Made by a program: the position numbers and the translations under genes
Part shown: in pieces, positions 2,712 through 33,339 of the stretch
Numbering within the stretch: the first letter of the stretch is position 1
How the letters are laid out: every line of letters begins with the position of its first letter
Notes under the pieces: generated by a model
What the model was told of the DNA's origin: nothing
Databases searched by the model: none
Seen by the model: the letters and a program-made list of their open reading frames with translations, nothing else
DNA from: a virus
Taxonomy: Duplodnaviria; Heunggongvirae; Uroviricota; Caudoviricetes
DNA: 33,339 nt
Virus record (IMG/VR): IMGVR_UViG_2671180294_000014
Strand: one strand, 5' to 3'

Positions 2712-3010
2712 TGTCCTGTTCTCATTCAGTTGTATTACTGAATAACGCCTTAAAAATCGCCGTTATGAAAAATGGCGACTTGTCTCTTATTCAACTTTGT
2801 CTTGATAAAGAAAAACGCGACATCACTGAATCTGTTATCGCGATTTATCAGAATGAATTAAACCTCCTGTCTGATGTGGTCAATTTACTTGTTAAACGCG
2901 CTGTATTCCACAAGCAAATTTCCTCAGTGGATGAACTGACAAAATTAACGACAGAACTTGCCAGTTATTGCGCTGATGTATCCAGGAAACTTAACGATAA
3001 AAGGAGCTGA
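2711..3010 (+). CDS. Hypothetical early protein (P2 orf81 position)
   Basis: ATG at 2711 overlaps the upstream TGA (TGATG), with GGAGG upstream. Synteny with P2. Confidence 0.7.
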   Translation: MSCSHSVVLLNNALKIAVMKNGDLSLIQLCLDKEKRDITESVIAIYQNELNLLSDVVNLLVKRAVFHKQISSVDELTKLTTELASYCADVSRKLNDKRS

Positions 3011-3012
3011 TA

Positions 3013-3237
3013 ATGCCGGACAACATAGATTTTATTCAGGAACAACAGGCTGAATTACTGGAGCGCCAGATTAACGCGGCAAGGGTAAAACATTGCGGTG
3101 CTTCTGCGCTGGTTTGCGAAGAGTGTGACGCGCCAATTCCTGCTGCCCGTCGTGCGGCTTATCCGTCAGCCACGCGTTGTGTTTCCTGTCAGTCAGTCTT
3201 TGAAGCAAAAAACAAACATTACCGGAGAACGGCATGA
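3013..3237 (+). CDS. TraR/DksA-type C4 zinc-finger protein (P2 orf82 position)
   Basis: Two Cys pairs, CEECDAPIP...RCVSC, match the DksA/TraR C4 pattern. The protein is 74 aa. Confidence 0.8.
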   Translation: MPDNIDFIQEQQAELLERQINAARVKHCGASALVCEECDAPIPAARRAAYPSATRCVSCQSVFEAKNKHYRRTA

Positions 3238-3509
3238 GTATTCGTATTGAAATTGGCGAACGTTATGTCGTTACCAGTGACAGCTTCCAGTTTATTCTCC
3301 ACGAGAAAAAGAGAGCGGAAAGCGGTAAAAACGCCGGTCAGGAATGGCTGGCGGTGGTTGGTTATTACCCGAAATTAAGCCAGCTCGTTTCCGGCCTGAT
3401 GCATCACGATATTCTGACCGGAAGCGCAAAGTCTTTTGCTGATTTAAACGCGCAGGTTGAGCAACTCAGCAAGCGTTGTTCAGAGGCTTTTGGCTCATAT
3501 GGCCGTTAA
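3234..3509 (+). CDS. Hypothetical early protein (P2 orf83 position)
   Basis: ATGA overlap with the preceding gene. The 3' end overlaps the start of A. Synteny with P2. Confidence 0.7.
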   Translation: MSIRIEIGERYVVTSDSFQFILHEKKRAESGKNAGQEWLAVVGYYPKLSQLVSGLMHHDILTGSAKSFADLNAQVEQLSKRCSEAFGSYGR

Positions 3510-5796
3510 AGCCTCCGGGCGTTTTGTCCCTCCGTCAGCATTTGCTGCAGGCACCGGTAAGGCGTTTACCGGTGCTTATGCATGGAACGCGCCACGCGAG
3601 GCTGTCGGGCGCGAAAGACCCCTTACACGTGACGAGATGCGTCAGGTGCAAGGTGTTTTATCCACGATTAACCGCCTGCCTTACTTTTTGCGCTCGCTGT
3701 TTACGTCACGCTATGACTACATCCGGCGCAATAAAAGCCCGGTGCACGGGTTTTATTTCCTCACATCCACTTTTCAGCGTCGTTTATGGCCGCGCATTGA
3801 GCGTGTGAATCAGCGCCATGAAATGAACACCGACGCGTCGATGCTGTTTCTGGCTGAGCGTGACCACTATGCGCGCCTGCCGGGAATGAATGACAAGGAG
3901 CTGAAAAAGTTTGCCGCCCGTATCTCATCGCAGCTTTTCATGATGTATGAGGAACTCAGCGATGCCTGGGTGGATGCGCATGGCGAAAAAGAATCGCTGT
4001 TTACGGATGAGGCGCAGGCTCACCTCTATGGTCATGTTGCTGGCGCTGCACGTGCTTTCAATATTTCCCCTCTCTACTGGAAAAAATACCGTAAAGGACA
4101 GATGACCACGAGGCAGGCATATTCTGCCATTGCCCGTCTGTTTAACGATGAGTGGTGGATTAGTCAGCTTAAAGGCCAGCGTATGCGCTGGCATGAGGCG
4201 TTACTGATTGCTGTCGGGGAGGTCAATAAAGACCGTTCTCCTTATGCCAGTAAACATGCCATTCGTGATGTGCGTGCACGCCGCCAGGCAAATCTGGAAT
4301 TTCTTAAATCGTGTGATCTCGAAAACAGGGAAACAGGCGAGCGCATCGACCTTATCAGTAAGGTGATGGGCAGTATTTCTAATCCTGAAATTCGCCGGAT
4401 GGAGCTGATGAACACCATTGCCGGTATTGAGCGTTACGCCGCCGCAGAAGGTGATGTGGGGATGTTTATCACGCTGACCGCGCCGTCAAAGTATCACCCG
4501 ACACGTCAGGTTGGAAAAGGCGAAAGTAAAACCGTCCAGCTAAATCACGGCTGGAACGATGAGGCATTTAATCCAAAGGATGCGCAGCGTTATCTCTGCC
4601 GTATCTGGAGCCTGATGCGCACGGCATTCAAGGATAATGATTTACAGGTCTACGGTTTGCGAGTCGTCGAGCCACACCACGACGGAACGCCGCACTGGCA
4701 TATGATGCTTTTTTGTAATCCACGCCAGCGTAACCAGATTATCGAAATCATGCGTCGCTACGCGCTCAAAGAGGATGGCGACGAAAGAGGAGCTGCGCGA
4801 AACCGTTTTCAGGCAAAACATCTTAATCGGGGCGGTGCTGCGGGGTATATCGCGAAATACATCTCAAAAAATATCGACGGCTATGCACTGGATGGGCAGC
4901 TCGATAACGATAGCGGCAGACCGCTGAAAGATACTGCCGCGGCTGTTACCGCATGGGCGTCAACGTGGCGCATTCCGCAATTTAAAACGGTTGGCCTGCC
5001 GACAATGGGGGCTTACCGTGAACTACGCAAATTGCCTCGCGGCGTCAGCATTGCTGATGAGTTTGACGAGCGCGTCGAGGCTGCACGCGCCGCCGCAGAC
5101 AGTGGTGATTTTGCGCTGTATATCAGCGCGCAGGGTGGGGCAAATGTCCCGCGCGATTGTCAGACTGTCAGGGTCGCCCGTAGTCCGTCGGATGAAGTTA
5201 ACGAGTACGAGGAAGAAGTCGAGAGAGTGGTCGGCATTTACGCGCCGCATCTCGGCGCGCGTCATATTCATATCACCAGAACGACGGACTGGCGCATTGT
5301 TCCGAAAGTGCCGGTCGTTGAGCCTTTGACTTTAAAAAGCGGCATCGCCGCGCCTCGGAGTCCTGTCAATAACTGTGGAAAGCTCACTGGTGGTGATACT
5401 TCGTTACCGGCTCCCACACCTTCTGAGCACGCCGCAGCAGTGCTTAATCTGGTAGATGACGGTGTTATCGAATGGAATGACCCGGAGGTTGTGAGGGCGC
5501 TCAGAGGTGCATTAAAACACGGACTGAGAAGACCAAACCGTCAGCAAAGAAACGGAAGCCCGTTAAAACCGCATGAAATAGCGCCATCGGCCAGACTGAC
5601 CCGGTCGGAACGAATGCAAATTACCCGTATCCGCGTTGACCTTGCTCAGAACGGTATCAGGCCGCAGCGATGGGAGCTTGAGGTGCTGGCGCGTGGGGCA
5701 ACCGTAAATTATGACGGGAAAAAATTCACTTACCCGCTCGCTGATGAGTGGTCGGGATTCTCAACAGTATTAGAGTCAAACTCAGTGAAGCGTTAA
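3499..5796 (+). CDS. A: Replication initiation endonuclease A (rolling-circle Rep)
   Basis: From ATG 3499 the protein reads MAVKASGRFVPPSAFAAGTGK..., as in P2 gpA. It contains the HUH-like EPHHDGTPHWHMM motif and the YIAKYISK tyrosine motif. The ORF-track start at 3457 is an upstream extension overlapping orf83. The P2 ori is known to lie inside the 3' part of A; I did not locate it here. Confidence 0.95.
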   Translation: MAVKASGRFVPPSAFAAGTGKAFTGAYAWNAPREAVGRERPLTRDEMRQVQGVLSTINRLPYFLRSLFTSRYDYIRRNKSPVHGFYFLTSTFQRRLWPRIERVNQRHEMNTDASMLFLAERDHYARLPGMNDKELKKFAARISSQLFMMYEELSDAWVDAHGEKESLFTDEAQAHLYGHVAGAARAFNISPLYWKKYRKGQMTTRQAYSAIARLFNDEWWISQLKGQRMRWHEALLIAVGEVNKDRSPYASKHAIRDVRARRQANLEFLKSCDLENRETGERIDLISKVMGSISNPEIRRMELMNTIAGIERYAAAEGDVGMFITLTAPSKYHPTRQVGKGESKTVQLNHGWNDEAFNPKDAQRYLCRIWSLMRTAFKDNDLQVYGLRVVEPHHDGTPHWHMMLFCNPRQRNQIIEIMRRYALKEDGDERGAARNRFQAKHLNRGGAAGYIAKYISKNIDGYALDGQLDNDSGRPLKDTAAAVTAWASTWRIPQFKTVGLPTMGAYRELRKLPRGVSIADEFDERVEAARAAADSGDFALYISAQGGANVPRDCQTVRVARSPSDEVNEYEEEVERVVGIYAPHLGARHIHITRTTDWRIVPKVPVVEPLTLKSGIAAPRSPVNNCGKLTGGDTSLPAPTPSEHAAAVLNLVDDGVIEWNDPEVVRALRGALKHGLRRPNRQQRNGSPLKPHEIAPSARLTRSERMQITRIRVDLAQNGIRPQRWELEVLARGATVNYDGKKFTYPLADEWSGFSTVLESNSVKR

Positions 5797-5882
5797 CTCA
5801 ATAAATATGAGTTTATAAGTTAGGCCTCGAGATTTTGTAGAAAGGGATGTATACTGAGTATCGTATAGATTTGGAGTGAGTG

Positions 5883-6905
5883 ATGACTGTAAAGGTGATA
5901 GACCTTTTTTGTGGTGCTGGCGGATTAACTCATGGTTTGCAGCTTGCGGGGCTTGATGTCGTTGCAGGCATTGACCTTGAGGGGGAATGTAGGTTTCCCT
6001 ATGAAAGAAACAATAAATCTAAGTTTATTGAGCAAGATATCGCTAAAGTAACAAAAGAGGAACTGCTGAGGCTTTATGGTGATGCGTCTGTAAAAGTATT
6101 GGCAGGATGCGCACCTTGCCAACCTTTTTCAAAATATACTCAAGGAAAAGATAAGGCTGATGATAAAAAATGGCCTCTTCTTTATGAGTTCGAACGTTTA
6201 ATTCGCGAAGTATCTCCAGAAATCGTAACAATGGAGAACGTTCCTGATGTAACTAAACATAAAGTTTATAATGATTTTTATAATTCATTGTTAAAGTTGG
6301 GCTATTATGTTTGGGCGTCTAAGATTGATTGTGTCGAATATGGAATCCCACAAAACCGTTCCCGTCATGTATTGTTGGCCTCAAAATTGGGGGCGATTGA
6401 GTTAGTAAAACGTGACGATGTTATTTTGAAAACAGTTAGAGATGCAATAGGAAATCTTCCTCCATTAGAAGATGGCCAAACAGATCCAAATGATATATTA
6501 CATAGAGCCAGTAAATTAAATCCGATTAATAAAAAAAGAATTATACACTCTGTTCCTGGTGGTACATGGAAGGACTGGCCGAAAGAGTTGGTTGCCGCTT
6601 GTCATATGAAATCCAGCGGTAAAGGGTATGCTAGTGTATATGGGCGCATGTCTTGGGATAAGCCAAGTCCAACAATTACAACTCTTTGTTATGGTTTCGG
6701 GAATGGGCGTTTTGGACATCCAGAACAGCATAGAGCGATTTCTCTTAGAGAGGCTGCTTTATTGCAAACTTTCCCGATGGATTATATTTTTGTAGAAGAC
6801 AAAAACAAGTTTGTTATAAGAAGTATTGGGAAAATGATAGGTAATGCTGTTCCTGTGGAACTAGGAAAAGCAATTGGGCAATCAATCAAGAACCATTTAG
6901 AATGA
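5883..6905 (+). CDS. DNA (cytosine-5) methyltransferase
   Basis: Canonical C5-MTase motifs are present: I DLFCGAGG, IV GCAPCQPFS, VI TMENVPDV, VIII QNRSRHVLLAS, IX-like RMSWDKPSPTITT, and X GNAVPVELG. GGAG lies 6 nt upstream of ATG 5883. The gene is AT-rich and has no P2 counterpart. Confidence 0.93.
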   Translation: MTVKVIDLFCGAGGLTHGLQLAGLDVVAGIDLEGECRFPYERNNKSKFIEQDIAKVTKEELLRLYGDASVKVLAGCAPCQPFSKYTQGKDKADDKKWPLLYEFERLIREVSPEIVTMENVPDVTKHKVYNDFYNSLLKLGYYVWASKIDCVEYGIPQNRSRHVLLASKLGAIELVKRDDVILKTVRDAIGNLPPLEDGQTDPNDILHRASKLNPINKKRIIHSVPGGTWKDWPKELVAACHMKSSGKGYASVYGRMSWDKPSPTITTLCYGFGNGRFGHPEQHRAISLREAALLQTFPMDYIFVEDKNKFVIRSIGKMIGNAVPVELGKAIGQSIKNHLE

Positions 6906-6911
6906 TAAAAT

Positions 6912-6928
6912 GGCCTGCTTTACAGGCC
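6912..6928. terminator. Stem-loop shared by the converging methyltransferase and HEPN genes (candidate bidirectional terminator)
   Basis: GGCCTG-CTTTA-CAGGCC sits between the two stop codons (6903-6905 and 6935-6937). It has A/T-rich flanks on both sides. Confidence 0.55.
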
Positions 6929-6934
6929 TTATAA

Positions 6935-7615
6935 CTATTGTTCTAAATATTCATTATTATTTATATAGTGCTCTATATTATTCACGATAGCATCAAGATA
7001 GGCGATTACTTCTAATGAAATATTCTCTAAGTCCTGATATGAAACATTTTTTCCAATCTCAGCAAATGATACATTGCCATGAGATAAATCATTACGATGT
7101 TGTTTAACAGTGGCTAATTTTTCACCATGTTTAGTGTGAGTGTAATCGGAATGTGTAGAAAAACCATATATTTTCGATTTTTCTTTGATTTCCTCTCTAT
7201 CAATATTTCCTGAGAATATTTTCTTTTTGTTGAACGTGCCATAAGATATACCGCAAGATATACCTTTGGTAAGGTGATTAACTAAACTTTCAACATTTAC
7301 AGATTCATTTTTTAATCTTTTTAATATTTCTGACCTGAGATTTTTCCTGAGTTTGTCAAATTCTACGTTTCTATCATAAATAGTCTCATGAATAAGGCAG
7401 ATAGCTTCTCTCATTGTTGATTCAATGAGGTTATATAACAGTATATATACTGCTCCCTTTAGAGTTTTTCGTGATTGAGCAGTAATGGAGAACTTATGTT
7501 CTTTATCATCAGCTGATATCAGTTCTGCACCGGCATACTCAATAAATTTCAAAAGATCCAAATAGGCCAAGATCTCTCCTGACCTTTCGTCAAAATCCTC
7601 ACGAAAACGATCCAT
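6935..7615 (-). CDS. Stand-alone HEPN-domain protein (predicted RNase-type effector)
   Basis: The 226-aa protein looks helical. An R-x4-H motif, RNDLSH (residues 174-179, nt 7079-7096), lies near the C-terminus. It resembles the family usually annotated as MAE_28990/MAE_18760 HEPN-like nuclease (from memory). Its ATG lies 1 nt after the upstream gene's stop. Confidence 0.75.
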   Translation of the reverse strand: MDRFREDFDERSGEILAYLDLLKFIEYAGAELISADDKEHKFSITAQSRKTLKGAVYILLYNLIESTMREAICLIHETIYDRNVEFDKLRKNLRSEILKRLKNESVNVESLVNHLTKGISCGISYGTFNKKKIFSGNIDREEIKEKSKIYGFSTHSDYTHTKHGEKLATVKQHRNDLSHGNVSFAEIGKNVSYQDLENISLEVIAYLDAIVNNIEHYINNNEYLEQ

Positions 7616-7616
7616 G

Positions 7617-8759
7617 TTAATCCTCTAATAATTTATCCCGAACATATTCAATTCGTTCAATTACCTTCACGCGACTATTAGCTCCGTCGGAAGTGGTCAA
7701 TCGTTTGAATTCTTCTGAGCTTAGCCAATCTAAGTTCTTGGGAACAAGGTCAGGGACTTCACGTAATGCAAGTGCTGCGCCAACAGCGAGAGATTCGAAT
7801 CTAACTCGAGGTGTAGATTTTGCAGTAATAGTTTTCTTGAATCCTGCTGGGAAATAGTTTTCAACAAAAGATAGAACATTAGCAAACTCTTGTTTCATTG
7901 AGTTTTGTTTAGTTTCGTCTATATCTCGATTTTCTGACATATAGTCATTTAGAAAATCCCGTACGGAATGATCAAAGTTCTTGTACTTATCTACGTAGGC
8001 AAAGAATCTTAATGTAAATTCTAACCGTTCATCTCGTTTTTCTTTAGTCTGAGATAAAGGTGCTAATTCTTTAAATTTAGGTATTGTTGAGCATGGCTTA
8101 ATAACCTGTGTATATAAATTTGTTGAACCAAGTTCTGATCCTTTACGGACTTCCATATCTTTCAATATATCGCTGCCAGAGTTAATACGCTCAAAAAGAT
8201 CTCTACGGGTTTCTTCATTGCATTTAGAACTCAATTCTATAACGCGGACAGGAATTCTCATGAAACGACGTTGACGTGATAATGGTAAATCTTGGAATTT
8301 GAAACCATTAAGGACGTCTAAAGATTTCAGGTCTTGTAAAACTAATTCATTTTGGATAAAAGCGTGTATAGTCCTAACTCGTTGTGAGCCATCAACAATC
8401 TCAATTCGCCCATCTAAATCGGGATCTTCGGAGAGAACATCTGCTATAAATATATATGGTATAGGAAAACCCAAAATCAAAGACTCTATCAATTTTGATT
8501 GTCTTTTTTCACTCCAAACAAAATCCCTTTGATAATCAGGAACAAAGAGTTCGTTAGTATCATCCTCTAATCCGTTATGATACTTATTAACTAATAACTC
8601 AACGGTAAATTCTTTGGTCTCAAAATCCACATCCTTTTGCTCAGCACGAATTTGCTCTTCAGCGTTTTGCTTTATCACCTCTAGCTGAGCAAGCAACTCT
8701 GCTCTTTTCTTGGCATTATCTTCATTTTCTAGTTGAGATTTTAAATCAATAATGTCCAT
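7617..8759 (-). CDS. DUF262 (ParB/Srx-like NTPase domain) protein with an N-terminal coiled coil and no fused nuclease domain
   Basis: DUF262 hallmarks are present: VPDYQRDFVWS and IVDGSQR (nt 8379-8393). ATG at 8759 is preceded by AAGGGA; the ORF-track start at 8777 is a TTG extension. I see no DUF1524/His-Me motif in the C-terminal half. Confidence 0.8.
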   Translation of the reverse strand: MDIIDLKSQLENEDNAKKRAELLAQLEVIKQNAEEQIRAEQKDVDFETKEFTVELLVNKYHNGLEDDTNELFVPDYQRDFVWSEKRQSKLIESLILGFPIPYIFIADVLSEDPDLDGRIEIVDGSQRVRTIHAFIQNELVLQDLKSLDVLNGFKFQDLPLSRQRRFMRIPVRVIELSSKCNEETRRDLFERINSGSDILKDMEVRKGSELGSTNLYTQVIKPCSTIPKFKELAPLSQTKEKRDERLEFTLRFFAYVDKYKNFDHSVRDFLNDYMSENRDIDETKQNSMKQEFANVLSFVENYFPAGFKKTITAKSTPRVRFESLAVGAALALREVPDLVPKNLDWLSSEEFKRLTTSDGANSRVKVIERIEYVRDKLLED

Positions 8760-8944
8760 GTCTAGTTCCCTTAACAAGTGTTAAAAATTGAAGCGGATAG
8801 CATACCGCATAGATCATGAAAAATGCCATCATGTGCATGGATTTGCATGCGTCAGAAGTCGCTTTTATTGTTAGTTATCACTAGCGCTGGCGTGCTCTTG
8901 GAGTGTTCATGCAACTGCATTAAAACCGCCCCATGAAGCGGGCG

Positions 8945-8963
8945 GGCGAGGCGGGGAAAGCAC
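8945..8963. other. cos: cos site (19-nt P2 cohesive end sequence)
   Basis: GGCGAGGCGGGGAAAGCAC exactly matches my memory of the P2 cohesive end and start of the P2 genome. It lies between the hotspot and Q, as in P2. Confidence 0.85.
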
Positions 8964-9103
8964 TGCGCGCTGGCGGTGGTGCTGATTTTATTTTCCAGCG
9001 TCTCAGCGCGTCGTGACGGCGCTTAGTCTGCCCGTTGGGCGTTGGTGTGTCTGCGGGATTTTTTGTGCGGTGATGAGCGTGTGAGGGCGTGATGGCGGGG
9101 TGT

Positions 9104-9125
9104 AAAAAAGCCGCCCGCAGGCGGC
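9104..9125 (-). terminator. Rho-independent terminator after Q
   Basis: On the minus strand, GCCGCC-TGCG-GGCGGC is followed by TTTTTT, immediately downstream of the Q stop (9131). Confidence 0.75.
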
Positions 9126-9130
9126 GATGT

Positions 9131-10165
9131 TCAGCCGTTGTCAGTGTCCAGTGAGTAGTTTTTAAAGCGGATGACCTCCTGACCGAGCCAGCCGTTTATC
9201 TCGCGGATCCTGTCCTGTAACGGGATAAGCTCATTGCGGACAAAGACCTTTGCCACTTTCTCAATATCACCCAGCGACCCGACGTTCTCCGGCTTGCCCC
9301 CCATCAACTGAAAGGGGATGCGGTGCGCGTCCAGCAGGTCAGCGGCGCTGGCTTTTTTGATATTAAAAAAATCGTCCTTCGTTGCCACTTCACTGAGCGG
9401 GATAATTTTAATGCCGTCGGCTTTCCCCTGTGGGGCATAGAGAAACAGATTTTTAAAGTTATTGCGGCCTTTCGACTTAACCATGTTTTCGCGAAGCATT
9501 TCGATATCGTTGCGATCCTGCACGGCATCGGTGACGTACATGATGTATCCGGCATGTGCGCCGTTTTCGTAATACTTGCGGCGGAACAGCGTGGCCGACT
9601 CATTCAGCCATGCAGAGTTAAGGGCGCTGAGATATTCCGGCAGGCCGTACAGCTCCTGATTAATATCAGGCTCCAGCAGGTGAAACACGGAGCCGGGCGC
9701 GAAGGCTGTCGGCTCGTTGAAGGACGGCACCCACCAGTAAACATCCTCCTCCACGCCACGACGGGTATATTTGGCCGGTGAGGTTTCCAGTCTGATGACC
9801 TTACCGGTGGTGCTGTAACGCTTTTCCAGAAACGCATTACCGAACACCAGAAAATCCAGCACAAAACGGCTGAAATCCTGCTGGGAAAGCCACGGGTGCG
9901 GGATAAACGTTGAAGCCAGAATATTACGTTTGACGTAAATCGGTGAGCTGTGATGCACGGCAGCACGCAGGCTTTTTGCCAGACCGGTAAAGCTGACCGG
10001 CGGCTCATACCATCTGCCGTTACTGATGCACTCGACGTAATCCAGAATGTCACGGCGGTCGAGTACCGGCACCGGCTCACCAAAGGTGAATGCTTCCATT
10101 TTCGGGGCGCTGGCGGTGATTGTTTTTGCCGCAGGTCGCGGTGTTTTCCCTTTTTTCTTGCTCAT
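9131..10165 (-). CDS. Q: Portal (capsid vertex) protein
   Basis: 344 aa, the same length as P2 gpQ and near-identical by recall. Confidence 0.96.
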   Translation of the reverse strand: MSKKKGKTPRPAAKTITASAPKMEAFTFGEPVPVLDRRDILDYVECISNGRWYEPPVSFTGLAKSLRAAVHHSSPIYVKRNILASTFIPHPWLSQQDFSRFVLDFLVFGNAFLEKRYSTTGKVIRLETSPAKYTRRGVEEDVYWWVPSFNEPTAFAPGSVFHLLEPDINQELYGLPEYLSALNSAWLNESATLFRRKYYENGAHAGYIMYVTDAVQDRNDIEMLRENMVKSKGRNNFKNLFLYAPQGKADGIKIIPLSEVATKDDFFNIKKASAADLLDAHRIPFQLMGGKPENVGSLGDIEKVAKVFVRNELIPLQDRIREINGWLGQEVIRFKNYSLDTDNG

Positions 10166-23766: not shown

Positions 23767-25185
23767 CTACATCGGGCTCTTATATGGGGAATGAGAGTTT
23801 TTGAAACGCGGTTCTTCATGCTTCGGACTGTAAATTCTTGCATGATTATCTATCACAACTTTACTTCCAAGAATATCTCGAGCTTCTCCTAACGACCACA
23901 CAGTAGAAAGATCATTAGTCAAATTTCGATAGAGAGCACGAAACCCCTTGGGTTTTTTAAGATCATATAAGAAATCAGGAACTTTAACTTTAAAATTAAA
24001 GGTCGGTAGTTTCGGAAGGGAATTAATAGCCGCAACAGTATTGTATACATGTACAAGCTTAGTTACAGGTACACCTTGTCTAGTCTTGAGCCCATACTTA
24101 GTTCGAATATAATCTGATTCTTTCGATACTTCAGTAAGCAATGCTCTTACTGACTTATTAGCTTGAGGCAATTCATTTTCATCAAACAAGCGCTTTATTT
24201 CTCGCATTTTCTCACGGGCCCTTACAAATTCGTTGTTGTCCCTTATGTTATAAGCAGCTTCAACAATACAACTTGGATCACCAGTTTCTTTTGCGAGCCA
24301 TGCCGAAAATAAAGGAAGCGAAGTTGCTGTTGCTACAGCTTTACCACCAGAATGAATATCAATGAGATCATGACTTAACGAAGTGGAAAAGTTTTCTACA
24401 ATATGTTTAGCATAGTCAAAACCATACTGACAGTTTTGGCTTAAATATGTCTGTTGATACGCCTGACGTAATGGATATAAAAAAGTATCTGCTTGAAGGT
24501 ACTTAGCTGTGAGAGAATAAAATACTGCCCGATTAGCCAGCCATACAAGCGAAGCCACGAATGCTTTGATTGCATCTGATGCTTCACCAGCAGATGTGCC
24601 ATCCCCCCATTTTGCTCCGGGAACTTTGTACCCCTTGCGAATAGGGTTGCCAAATCGATCGAGAAGTTCAACATCGCCATTTGTTCTATTACCAGACTCA
24701 GCAGCATCACGCAGTTCTGAAAAAATGGCAGCAGCAATGTTACCATATTTTTCAAACTCCTTACCTCCATCAGATAAGTTCTTCAGTGTTAGATGATAAA
24801 CACTTGAACTAATGTCCCATGTACATATGATATGTGTCTGAAGAAGTTCAATTAGTTTTTTAAAATCGTCATTAACAAATGTTCCACCACGAATTTTAGG
24901 TTTCAATGCATCAGATATTTTTTTTGCTTCACTTTCAATTTCATCCAACCCATATTGTGCTTTATCAAGAAATAATATCTCTCTGAAACTTGAAATCCTA
25001 CTCCCACGGTACTCTGGAATATAATCATCAACCGCGATAACGTGATCATAGAACAAAATAGACTGTATATAGTTCTCAAATGCTATTATGTCTGTATCTA
25101 CTGAGTCCTTCGATCTTGTTTTTACTTTCCCCTCGATTCTTTGGACTGCAGTTAGAGTTGAATTATCAATCAGTGCGTATGTCAT
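23767..25185 (-). CDS. Hypothetical 472-aa protein with no recognisable domain (cargo of the Z/fun hotspot)
   Basis: It is a long uninterrupted AT-rich ORF with ATG at 25185 and an AAGGAA SD 6 nt upstream. It lies opposite to both flanking late operons and has no P2 counterpart. I could not find nucleotide-binding, nuclease, TM or HTH motifs by eye. Confidence 0.8.
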   Translation of the reverse strand: MTYALIDNSTLTAVQRIEGKVKTRSKDSVDTDIIAFENYIQSILFYDHVIAVDDYIPEYRGSRISSFREILFLDKAQYGLDEIESEAKKISDALKPKIRGGTFVNDDFKKLIELLQTHIICTWDISSSVYHLTLKNLSDGGKEFEKYGNIAAAIFSELRDAAESGNRTNGDVELLDRFGNPIRKGYKVPGAKWGDGTSAGEASDAIKAFVASLVWLANRAVFYSLTAKYLQADTFLYPLRQAYQQTYLSQNCQYGFDYAKHIVENFSTSLSHDLIDIHSGGKAVATATSLPLFSAWLAKETGDPSCIVEAAYNIRDNNEFVRAREKMREIKRLFDENELPQANKSVRALLTEVSKESDYIRTKYGLKTRQGVPVTKLVHVYNTVAAINSLPKLPTFNFKVKVPDFLYDLKKPKGFRALYRNLTNDLSTVWSLGEARDILGSKVVIDNHARIYSPKHEEPRFKNSHSPYKSPM

Positions 25186-32355: not shown

Positions 32356-32436
32356 ATCCTCAATTTGCCTGCTGCTTAATGCATTGCAGATGATTTGCTT
32401 CCGTTATACTAGCGTCAGTTGATAGCGGGAGTATTT

Positions 32437-33339
32437 ATGAATCAATCTTATGGACGGCTGGTCAGTCGGGCGGCGATTGCTGCGACGGCGATGGCTTCGC
32501 TGCTATTGCTGATTAAAATTTTTGCATGGTGGTATACCGGGTCGGTGAGTATTCTCGCCGCGCTGGTGGATTCGCTGGTGGATATCGGCGCGTCGTTGAC
32601 GAATTTACTGGTGGTGCGATATTCCCTGCAACCTGCCGACGATAATCACTCGTTTGGTCACGGTAAAGCTGAGTCCCTCGCGGCGCTGGCGCAAAGTATG
32701 TTTATCTCCGGTTCGGCACTATTCCTGTTTTTGACGGGTATTCAACATCTGGTATCTCCAACACCGATGACAGATCCAGGCGTCGGGGTTATCGTGACAA
32801 TTGTGGCGCTAATTTGTACGATTATCCTTGTCTCGTTTCAGCGGTGGGTGGTGCGCCGGACGCAAAGCCAGGCGGTGCGGGCTGATATGCTACATTACCA
32901 GTCTGATGTTATGATGAACGGCGCAATTCTGCTGGCGCTGGGGTTGTCCTGGTACGGCTGGCATCGCGCCGATGCTCTGTTTGCATTGGGAATCGGCATC
33001 TATATTTTATATAGCGCGTTACGCATGGGATATGAGGCGGTACAGTCATTACTGGATCGCGCATTGCCTGATGAGGAACGGCAAGAAATTATTGATATCG
33101 TGACTTCCTGGCCGGGTGTTAGCGGCGCTCACGATCTTCGCACGCGGCAGTCAGGGCCGACCCGCTTTATTCAGATTCATTTGGAAATGGAAGACTCTCT
33201 GCCTTTGGTTCAGGCACATATGGTGGCGGATCAGGTAGAGCAGGCTATTTTACGGCGTTTTCCGGGATCGGATGTAATTATCCATCAGGACCCCTGTTCC
33301 GTCGTACCCAGGGAGGGTAAACGGTCTATGCTTTCATAA
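32437..33339 (+). CDS. fieF: Cation-efflux (Zn/Fe) transporter FieF/YiiP, CDF family (chromosomal)
   Basis: From ATG 32437 the protein reads [47 protein letters not shown]... It is 300 aa and matches E. coli FieF by recall. The ORF-track start at 32419 is a TTG extension. Confidence 0.96.

Follow-up and report, generated by a model that had tools for sequence, protein, structure and literature searches.

A DUF262-HEPN gene pair and its dedicated cytosine methyltransferase form a mobile cassette in the P2 defence hotspot of an Escherichia coli prophage

The virus record IMGVR_UViG_2671180294_000014, whose 33,339 nucleotides (nt) we refer to as the window, is a complete P2-like Escherichia coli prophage that runs from the integrase gene (1-1011) through the host gene fieF (32419-33339), at which end it is 99.4% identical to E. 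coli chromosomes. Between its replication endonuclease gene A and the cos/portal side lies a cargo cassette of about 3 kb (approximate bounds 5797-8820) with a guanine-plus-cytosine content of 36%, against 51% for the window, and this site is P2 hotspot #1. The cassette contains a C5 DNA cytosine methyltransferase gene of the Dcm type on the plus strand (5883-6905) and, on the minus strand, a gene for a DUF262/ParB-like protein of 380 amino acids (7617-8759) followed by a gene for a stand-alone HEPN protein of 226 amino acids (6935-7615), a member of the MAE_28990 family and the predicted effector nuclease. An earlier reading of the sequence alone (the original prediction) had singled out the DUF262 and HEPN genes as a two-gene operon in the P2 defence hotspot. 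The placement is borne out by the flanking genes, which are Phage_GPA (P2 replication gene A, 3457-5796, 2e-123) on one side and the portal gene (9131-10165) on the other; homology to the P2 backbone picks up again at ~8820-9130 (query 2941-3251; 2,175 E. coli genomes). This hotspot is home to many validated defence systems (PMC9122126, PMC9519451).

Both domain assignments of the pair hold at levels far beyond chance. The HEPN protein matches PF18737 (HEPN_MAE_28990) over its full length at 5.8e-29 and PF18735 at 8e-9 in Pfam, and shows the HEPN helical-bundle fold, while the DUF262 protein matches PF03235 (GmrSD_N) at 7.7e-26 over residues 58-206; no DUF1524 or other nuclease domain was found in it by Pfam, as had been claimed. 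The three motifs on which the original prediction relied can all be read from the minus strand, and such positions as it gave for them are correct. The HEPN catalytic motif Rx4H is represented by RNDLSH (7079-7096), with R174 and H179 correctly numbered, and lies within an invariant RNxLxHG: R174, N175, H179 and G180 do not vary among 29 diverse homologues, down to 34% identity, and neither do the family-specific FSGN and YGF motifs. In the DUF262 protein, the first signature is VPDYQRDFVWS (8511-8543), of which PDYQR is invariant among relatives, and the second is the ParB/DUF262 nucleotide-binding motif DGSQR (8379-8393), kept as DG[STA]QR in 68 of 68 full-length relatives, with residues invariant in an alignment of 39 homologues. 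A motif of this DGxQR type has been modelled as contacting the beta and gamma phosphates (PMC12065111). Only the residue numbers given for this second motif need correction, as D129/Q132/R133 had been counted from a TTG at 8777; from the ATG at 8759, which is the PGAP start and yields 380 amino acids, the length of nearly all homologues among those listed, they become D123, Q126 and R127, and the motif spans D123-R127.

Direct reading of the junction confirms the coordinates of the two minus-strand open reading frames (ORFs) and their translational coupling through TAA-C-ATG (7613-7619), with TAA at 7619-7617, C at 7616 and ATG at 7615-7613, and a GAGGA lies 8 nt 5' of the HEPN start codon. 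The HEPN family is large, comprising 1,715 clusters at 50% identity (E<=1e-3), and relatives of the protein are encoded in 401 species-level genomes, from which we took 80 loci for comparison. A DUF262 gene lies directly 5' of the HEPN gene and on the same strand in all 80, and in 72 cases the intergenic gap is between -8 and +6 nt. The pairing is obligate, and among the best 150 of the 1,715 representative HEPN relatives none is fused to DUF262; all are stand-alone proteins of 144-264 amino acids.

Beyond its nucleotide-binding core, the DUF262 protein is predicted to be helical at residues 3-12 and 16-40 and throughout its C-terminal half, the latter in the AlphaFold2 model, and it may act as a nucleoside triphosphate (NTP)-dependent DNA sensor. 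A sequence search of the PDB with the DUF262 profile returned only a 33-residue motif match, over the VPDYQRDFVWS stretch, to BrxU (7p9k) and 20yw, and the same search with the HEPN profile returned nothing meaningful. PADLOC places the DUF262 protein closest to Menshen NsnA (PDLC03877, 1.6e-54, residues 25-374 of 380) and also matches it to PD-T4-2_A (PDLC04027, 2.4e-35, residues 73-372), whereas the HEPN protein matches no PADLOC family at E<=1. No recognised endonuclease domain occurs in the cassette, the nearest thing to one being a weak PADLOC match of the DUF262 protein to a Type II restriction endonuclease (PDLC03418, 9e-6). As a separate observation, many T4-like phages of Escherichia, Klebsiella, Cronobacter and relatives encode short proteins that match the DUF262 N-terminal domain only (residues ~52-193, 28-31% identity), for example in RB49 (AY343333, 115122-115520), KP15 (GU295964, 95653-96045) and RB43 (NC_007023, 97242-97580); these could be decoys or counter-defence proteins directed against DUF262 systems, or phage-borne sensors.

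The methyltransferase gene is convergent with the HEPN gene. Its product matches PF00145 at 3.4e-58 and carries all the canonical C5-methyltransferase motifs (FCGAGG, PCQPFS, ENV, QNRSR and GNA); with motifs I, IV (PCQ), VI (ENV), VIII and X present it looks like an active enzyme, and its nearest solved relatives are M.HaeIII and DNMT1. The ORF opens with GTG at 5880, and PGAP places the start at the ATG at 5883. Here the original prediction was incomplete: the pair that it described stands, but the unit does not end there, because this gene, which it missed, belongs with the pair. Of the 80 related loci, 36 have a Dcm orthologue (phmmer E ~1e-120) next to the HEPN gene, in a convergent orientation in 33 of these 36 and with an overlap of exactly 4 nt at the 3' ends in 20 of the 33, and the methylase-bearing loci span Gammaproteobacteria, Bacteroidales, Acidobacteria and Cyanobacteria. 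Reciprocal lookups from five methylase homologues (60-64% identity), picked by methylase similarity alone and including Pseudomonas, Stenotrophomonas, P. aeruginosa and Shewanella, led back to an adjoining HEPN_MAE_28990 gene in five of five cases, with a full DUF262 gene next to it in four. The pairwise identities of the DUF262 proteins correlate with those of the methylases (r=0.96). The methylase is thus dedicated to the DUF262-HEPN pair and co-diverges with the DUF262 protein, and with Dcm as a third component the self/non-self logic of the system therefore likely changes.

When the DUF262 and HEPN proteins are placed in a tree, the methylase-bearing loci form the paraphyletic background, and the methylase-free loci fall mainly into one large nested cyanobacterial clade, with sporadic loss in two other loci (L013, which keeps only a remnant, and L014). 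The HEPN Rx4H motif is retained in methylase-bearing and methylase-free relatives alike, and no conserved alternative third gene was found in the methylase-free loci, where the neighbours are housekeeping genes only. Five residues of the DUF262 protein (255, 317, 320, 323 and 361) are at least 90% fixed within each of the two groups of relatives but differ between them; all five lie in the C-terminal helical domain, and neither the DUF262 core nor the HEPN protein has any such position. They are a weak lead, as the comparison is confounded by phylogeny.

The three genes also travel together. Among complete E. coli genomes, nine of nine near-identical methylase copies coincide with the nine DUF262-HEPN copies, and there are seven more full-length methylase matches at ~71% nucleotide identity. 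Two of these seven were inspected, and both sit in trios in the same P2 hotspot, representing two further alleles (NZ_CP128592, locus L089, 4001-6897; NZ_CP059907, locus L090, 4001-6901), and at least three divergent alleles of methylase, HEPN and DUF262 genes occur in E. coli P2 hotspots. Identity between allele types is 71-73% for the methylase, 45-47% for the DUF262 protein and 30-34% for the HEPN protein; the HEPN protein is the fastest-evolving of the three, which suggests that the alleles may be diversifying specificity variants. At ~85% protein identity the trio recurs in lambdoid prophages of Klebsiella pneumoniae, with the replication genes on one side and the Q-antiterminator region on the other (L083-L086, 6001-8886). 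It is very common there, as 487 blocks of the collection carry its DUF262 protein in their index, and in Vibrio jasicida it forms a chromosomal islet beside a resolvase (L087, 4849-7712). Hence, the trio moves as a unit between unrelated mobile elements, namely P2-like prophages, Klebsiella lambdoid prophages and a Vibrio islet. Because of the conservation of the methylase, its co-divergence with the DUF262 protein, the reciprocal lookups and this shared mobility, we regard the three-gene mobile cassette as the functional unit in this lineage.

Two further occurrences deserve mention beside these. The sequenced P2-like phage Peduovirus P24B2 (LR595873, locus L081, 2337-3160) encodes DUF262 and HEPN proteins 100% identical to those of the E. 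coli NZ_CP059907 allele, and its methylase frame stops early, at ~234 amino acids against 348; the early stop either knocks out the methylase naturally, leaving the pair intact, or reflects a sequencing error. In Shewanella frigidimarina (L094, 1-3067) the trio adjoins a Type II restriction-modification (R-M) pair, consisting of an MvaI_BcnI endonuclease and a 556-amino-acid C5 methylase, together with an AAA_15/21 ATPase gene, and the region is a small defence island.

Several non-coding features surround the genes. Between the convergent stops of the Dcm and HEPN genes lies a GC-rich hairpin (6912-6928; GGCCTGTAAAGCAGGCC, then ATTTTAT on the minus strand) that is likely a bidirectional terminator. 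Upstream of the DUF262 gene is a non-coding leader (8760-8925, minus strand), presumed to be its promoter region; as terminator-like hairpins on the minus strand at 9125-9110 and 8945-8926 close the portal transcript, the DUF262-HEPN pair needs a promoter of its own. A scan of the leader for sigma-70 promoters gave none that was convincing, with 8 sites against 11.3 expected by chance. The leader also holds a 13-nt inverted repeat (8837-8849 / 8908-8920; ATGGATTTGCATG / CATGCAACTGCAT), 85% complementary and with arms 58 nt apart, which is close to the resumption of P2 backbone homology and could be an operator or a cos-related element. An RNA antitoxin in the style of AbiF or ToxIN was sought across 5600-9300, and the reading was rejected, as neither an Rfam match nor any tandem or direct repeat occurs in that interval. 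Elsewhere in the window, between the tail-fibre genes and the tail-sheath gene, a position that corresponds to the second P2 defence hotspot (Z/fun), a 472-amino-acid ORF (23767-25185, minus strand) has no Pfam or PADLOC match and only one match of any kind, phrog_13435 (unknown function, 9.6e-294); it is a candidate for an uncharacterised defence gene.

The novelty that the original prediction implied for the pair does not stand. An operon class of MAE_28990 HEPN, ParB and DNA methylase genes was predicted by Anantharaman et al. in 2013, with the partner termed a 'ParB nuclease' and with a model that likens the HEPN RNase to PrrC and has its R-M partners keep it inactive (PMC3710099). The arrangement 'DNA_methylase + HEPN_MAE_28990 + DUF262' is listed for P2 hotspots in Table S5A of Rousset et al. 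2022, and WP_001697730, the methylase given there, is the RefSeq methylase of an E. coli cassette 97.8% identical to ours; the main text and the searchable parts of the supplement of that paper show no sign that the trio was cloned or tested. The entries in these two sources are computational, and RefSeq names all three cassette genes correctly. A related pair was validated in 2022, when PD-T4-2 was cloned from ECOR65 by Vassallo et al. and found to protect K-12 against T4, its deletion in native ECOR65 restoring T4 plaquing; its component A is a DUF262 protein and its component B a HEPN protein (RiboL-PSP/MAE_28990) by HHpred (PMC9519451). Reviews group PD-T4-2 with Menshen and Dazbog as DUF262 systems without DUF1524 that are largely uncharacterised, and PD-T4-2 was still so termed in 2025 (PMC12065111); the literature that we searched contains no mechanistic study of PD-T4-2 or MAE_28990 and no dissected DUF262-HEPN system. 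What does carry over from the original prediction is its general idea of a ParB-like nucleoside triphosphatase (NTPase) sensor paired in trans with a HEPN effector, which agrees with published views of DUF262 (PMC12065111, PMC10952713) and of HEPN proteins, those characterised as active being mostly RNases (PMC3710099).

In its gene set and its three Pfam families the window cassette is identical to the operon class in Anantharaman et al. 2013 and Table S5A of Rousset et al. 2022, with a HEPN_MAE_28990 protein bearing Rx4H and adjacent DUF262 and methylase genes. Its likeness to PD-T4-2, a validated anti-T4 system of the E. coli accessory genome, is one of architecture: two co-directional genes, the first encoding a DUF262 protein without DUF1524, which in the window matches PD-T4-2_A over nearly its full length, and the second a small stand-alone HEPN protein of the RiboL-PSP/MAE_28990 clan. 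The two nevertheless differ, in that the PD-T4-2 ORFs together take up 1,540 nt against 1,825 nt for the window pair, PD-T4-2 is active as a 1.8-kb two-gene clone without a methyltransferase whereas the window cassette has a dedicated Dcm, and the window HEPN protein has no PADLOC match to PD-T4-2_B, although both B proteins belong to one Pfam clan (PF18735/PF18737). The HEPN allele of P24B2 likewise has no PADLOC match, and a methylase-free Nostoc relative matches only Csx1/Csm6, weakly. As PADLOC recognises the DUF262 protein but not the HEPN protein, the cassette is not PD-T4-2 itself but a sister family that shares its architecture, and it belongs to the 2013 operon class; the PD-T4-2 proteins (RCO39066.1 and an unannotated ORF on QOYX01000002) were compared through PADLOC profiles.

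Other known systems share single parts of this design. Menshen NsnA (Millman 2022; PMC12065111) follows the same domain plan, DUF262 first and then a helical DNA-binding domain at the C-terminus, but it is accompanied by NsnB (ABC-ATPase/DUF3696) and NsnC (inPIN-effector) genes where the window has a HEPN gene; neither NsnB nor NsnC occurs between gene A and the portal gene, and we rejected membership in Menshen on that ground. GmrSD, BrxU and SspE have the same N-terminal DUF262 NTPase domain with a DGxQR motif as the window protein, but there it is fused to a His-Me DNase and here it is accompanied by a separate HEPN protein; a GmrSD-type assignment was rejected because DUF1524 is absent from the window protein. 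SspABCD-SspE, Dnd-DndI and GmrSD-type systems differ further in the modification concerned, phosphorothioate or glucosylated hydroxymethylcytosine as opposed to what is presumably 5-methylcytosine (5mC) here, and in their target, which is DNA where RNA would be expected for the cassette. PrrC-EcoprrI, the model drawn upon for the operon class (PMC3710099), resembles the cassette in that a HEPN RNase, an anticodon nuclease, is embedded in a modification-dependent system, but PrrC contains an ABC-ATPase domain of its own and a Type Ic R-M complex keeps it silent, and the window has instead a ParB-like partner and no recognisable endonuclease.

We consider it most likely, with moderate confidence, that the trio is an anti-phage cassette complete in itself, which the prophage carries as cargo in the P2 hotspot and in which a methylation-linked ParB-like NTPase sensor gates a HEPN RNase. 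Dcm would place a sequence-specific 5mC mark on resident DNA. The DUF262 protein would be an NTPase of the ParB fold that binds DNA through its helical C-terminal domain; it would be produced through translational coupling in a fixed ratio to the HEPN protein and would probably keep the latter inactive in a complex. By analogy with GmrSD, SspE and DndI, we infer that the DUF262 protein acts as an NTP-dependent sensor of DNA and of its modification state; upon encountering phage DNA it would undergo a nucleotide-dependent switch through DGSQR that releases or activates the HEPN protein. A HEPN dimer may then form a composite Rx4H site and cut tRNA, rRNA or mRNA, which would halt translation and, with it, the growth of the phage, while the infected cell would probably pay for this with its life. 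We favour a logic in which the cognate methyl mark signifies self and keeps the DUF262 protein quiet, as in restriction-modification; alternatively, as in SspE, the self mark may be needed to license the DUF262 protein. The stricter claim that the trio is an epigenetic self/non-self system, in which a 5mC methylase marks, a ParB-fold NTPase reads and a HEPN protein cuts RNA instead of DNA, we advance only tentatively and regard as rather doubtful.

The proposed cassette is supported by the domain identities, the conserved catalytic motifs, the coupled and obligate DUF262-HEPN pairing, the distribution, co-divergence and shared mobility of the methylase and the RNase activity of most characterised active HEPN proteins. 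A precedent is the related two-gene system PD-T4-2, which defends both K-12 and its native strain against T4 (PMC9519451). Other observations weigh against the proposal. The methylase has been lost, with the pair and its motifs intact, in the nested cyanobacterial clade, in L013 and L014 and possibly in phage P24B2, and PD-T4-2 functions without one (PMC9519451); these losses and the independent action of PD-T4-2 indicate that the pair is able to function, and is not lethal, without a linked methylase. This argues for a poor fit with a strict rule by which an unmethylated site is the trigger, unless an unlinked host methylase supplies the mark, and a host methylase of the same specificity could indeed reconcile the methylase-free loci with R-M logic. 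Moreover, as the HEPN protein has no PD-T4-2_B match, it is architecture and Pfam clan, not close homology, on which a transfer of function from PD-T4-2 is based. The activity of PD-T4-2 as a two-gene clone lends weight to the view that the DUF262 and HEPN proteins alone form an abortive-infection pair like PD-T4-2, with a trigger such as hypermodified T-even DNA or a phage protein, while the methylase merely travels along or serves the mobile element otherwise, for example by shielding the DNA of prophage or host against other restriction enzymes. In about half of the related loci the DUF262 and HEPN genes are intact although neither a methylase nor another conserved third gene adjoins them, and the DUF262 enzymes GmrSD and BrxU sense foreign modified DNA, not their own marks. 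We nevertheless consider this view unlikely, for the methylase subfamily looks dedicated, standing beside a HEPN gene in every reciprocal lookup, it co-diverges with the DUF262 protein, and the convergent layout with 3' overlap is kept across four phyla and three mobile contexts, where a passenger would be expected to be reshuffled.

The trio might instead be a classical R-M system, with the DUF262 protein itself as the DNA endonuclease and the methylase holding it in check, and with the HEPN RNase as the PrrC-like guard of Anantharaman et al. 2013, silenced by the R-M proteins and freed once a phage neutralises them. The term 'ParB nuclease' and the PrrC analogy drawn for HEPN genes linked to R-M systems (PMC3710099) favour such an arrangement, as do the weak Type II match of the DUF262 protein and the label 'Type-IV restriction' that Rousset et al. 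2022 gave to a Vibrio DUF262 and HEPN_MAE_28990 locus. However, in GmrSD, BrxU and SspE the DUF262 domain is the NTPase and sensor and it is DUF1524, absent from the window protein, that cuts, and R-M systems usually decay in the reverse manner to what is seen here, where the methylase has been lost repeatedly and the putative endonuclease kept intact; we therefore think a classical R-M system quite improbable. The cassette might also be an addiction or stabilisation module, with a HEPN toxin, an antitoxin-like DUF262 protein and an epigenetic methylase, that secures its own retention or the prophage's and contributes nothing significant against phages. It is a compact mobile unit, and R-M-like modules can behave selfishly. 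Yet its location in a hotspot with many validated defence systems (PMC9122126, PMC9519451), the defence phenotype demonstrated for PD-T4-2, native strain included, and the lack of RNA antitoxin-like repeats or an Rfam match in 5600-9300 make an addiction module a very remote prospect.

As a discovery the gene set adds little, since it is named in RefSeq, listed in the P2-hotspot catalogue and foreseen in the operon prediction of 2013, and since a relative has already been validated. Its interest is mechanistic: a ParB-like switch and a HEPN nuclease are combined with a dedicated, co-diverging 5mC methylase whose role has apparently never been asked about, and the way in which the three cooperate is a worthwhile question. 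For such work the cassette is a handy entry point, being ~3 kb long, native to E. coli, available in several natural alleles and accompanied by widespread Klebsiella relatives. If the epigenetic self/non-self reading is true, the trio would be an R-M system whose abortive effector targets RNA, which no system has yet been shown to do, and the co-diverging alleles, of which E. coli P2 hotspots hold at least three, would be its specificity variants. The cassette could thus reveal how the sensing of DNA modification is coupled to an RNase through a ParB-like nucleotide switch.

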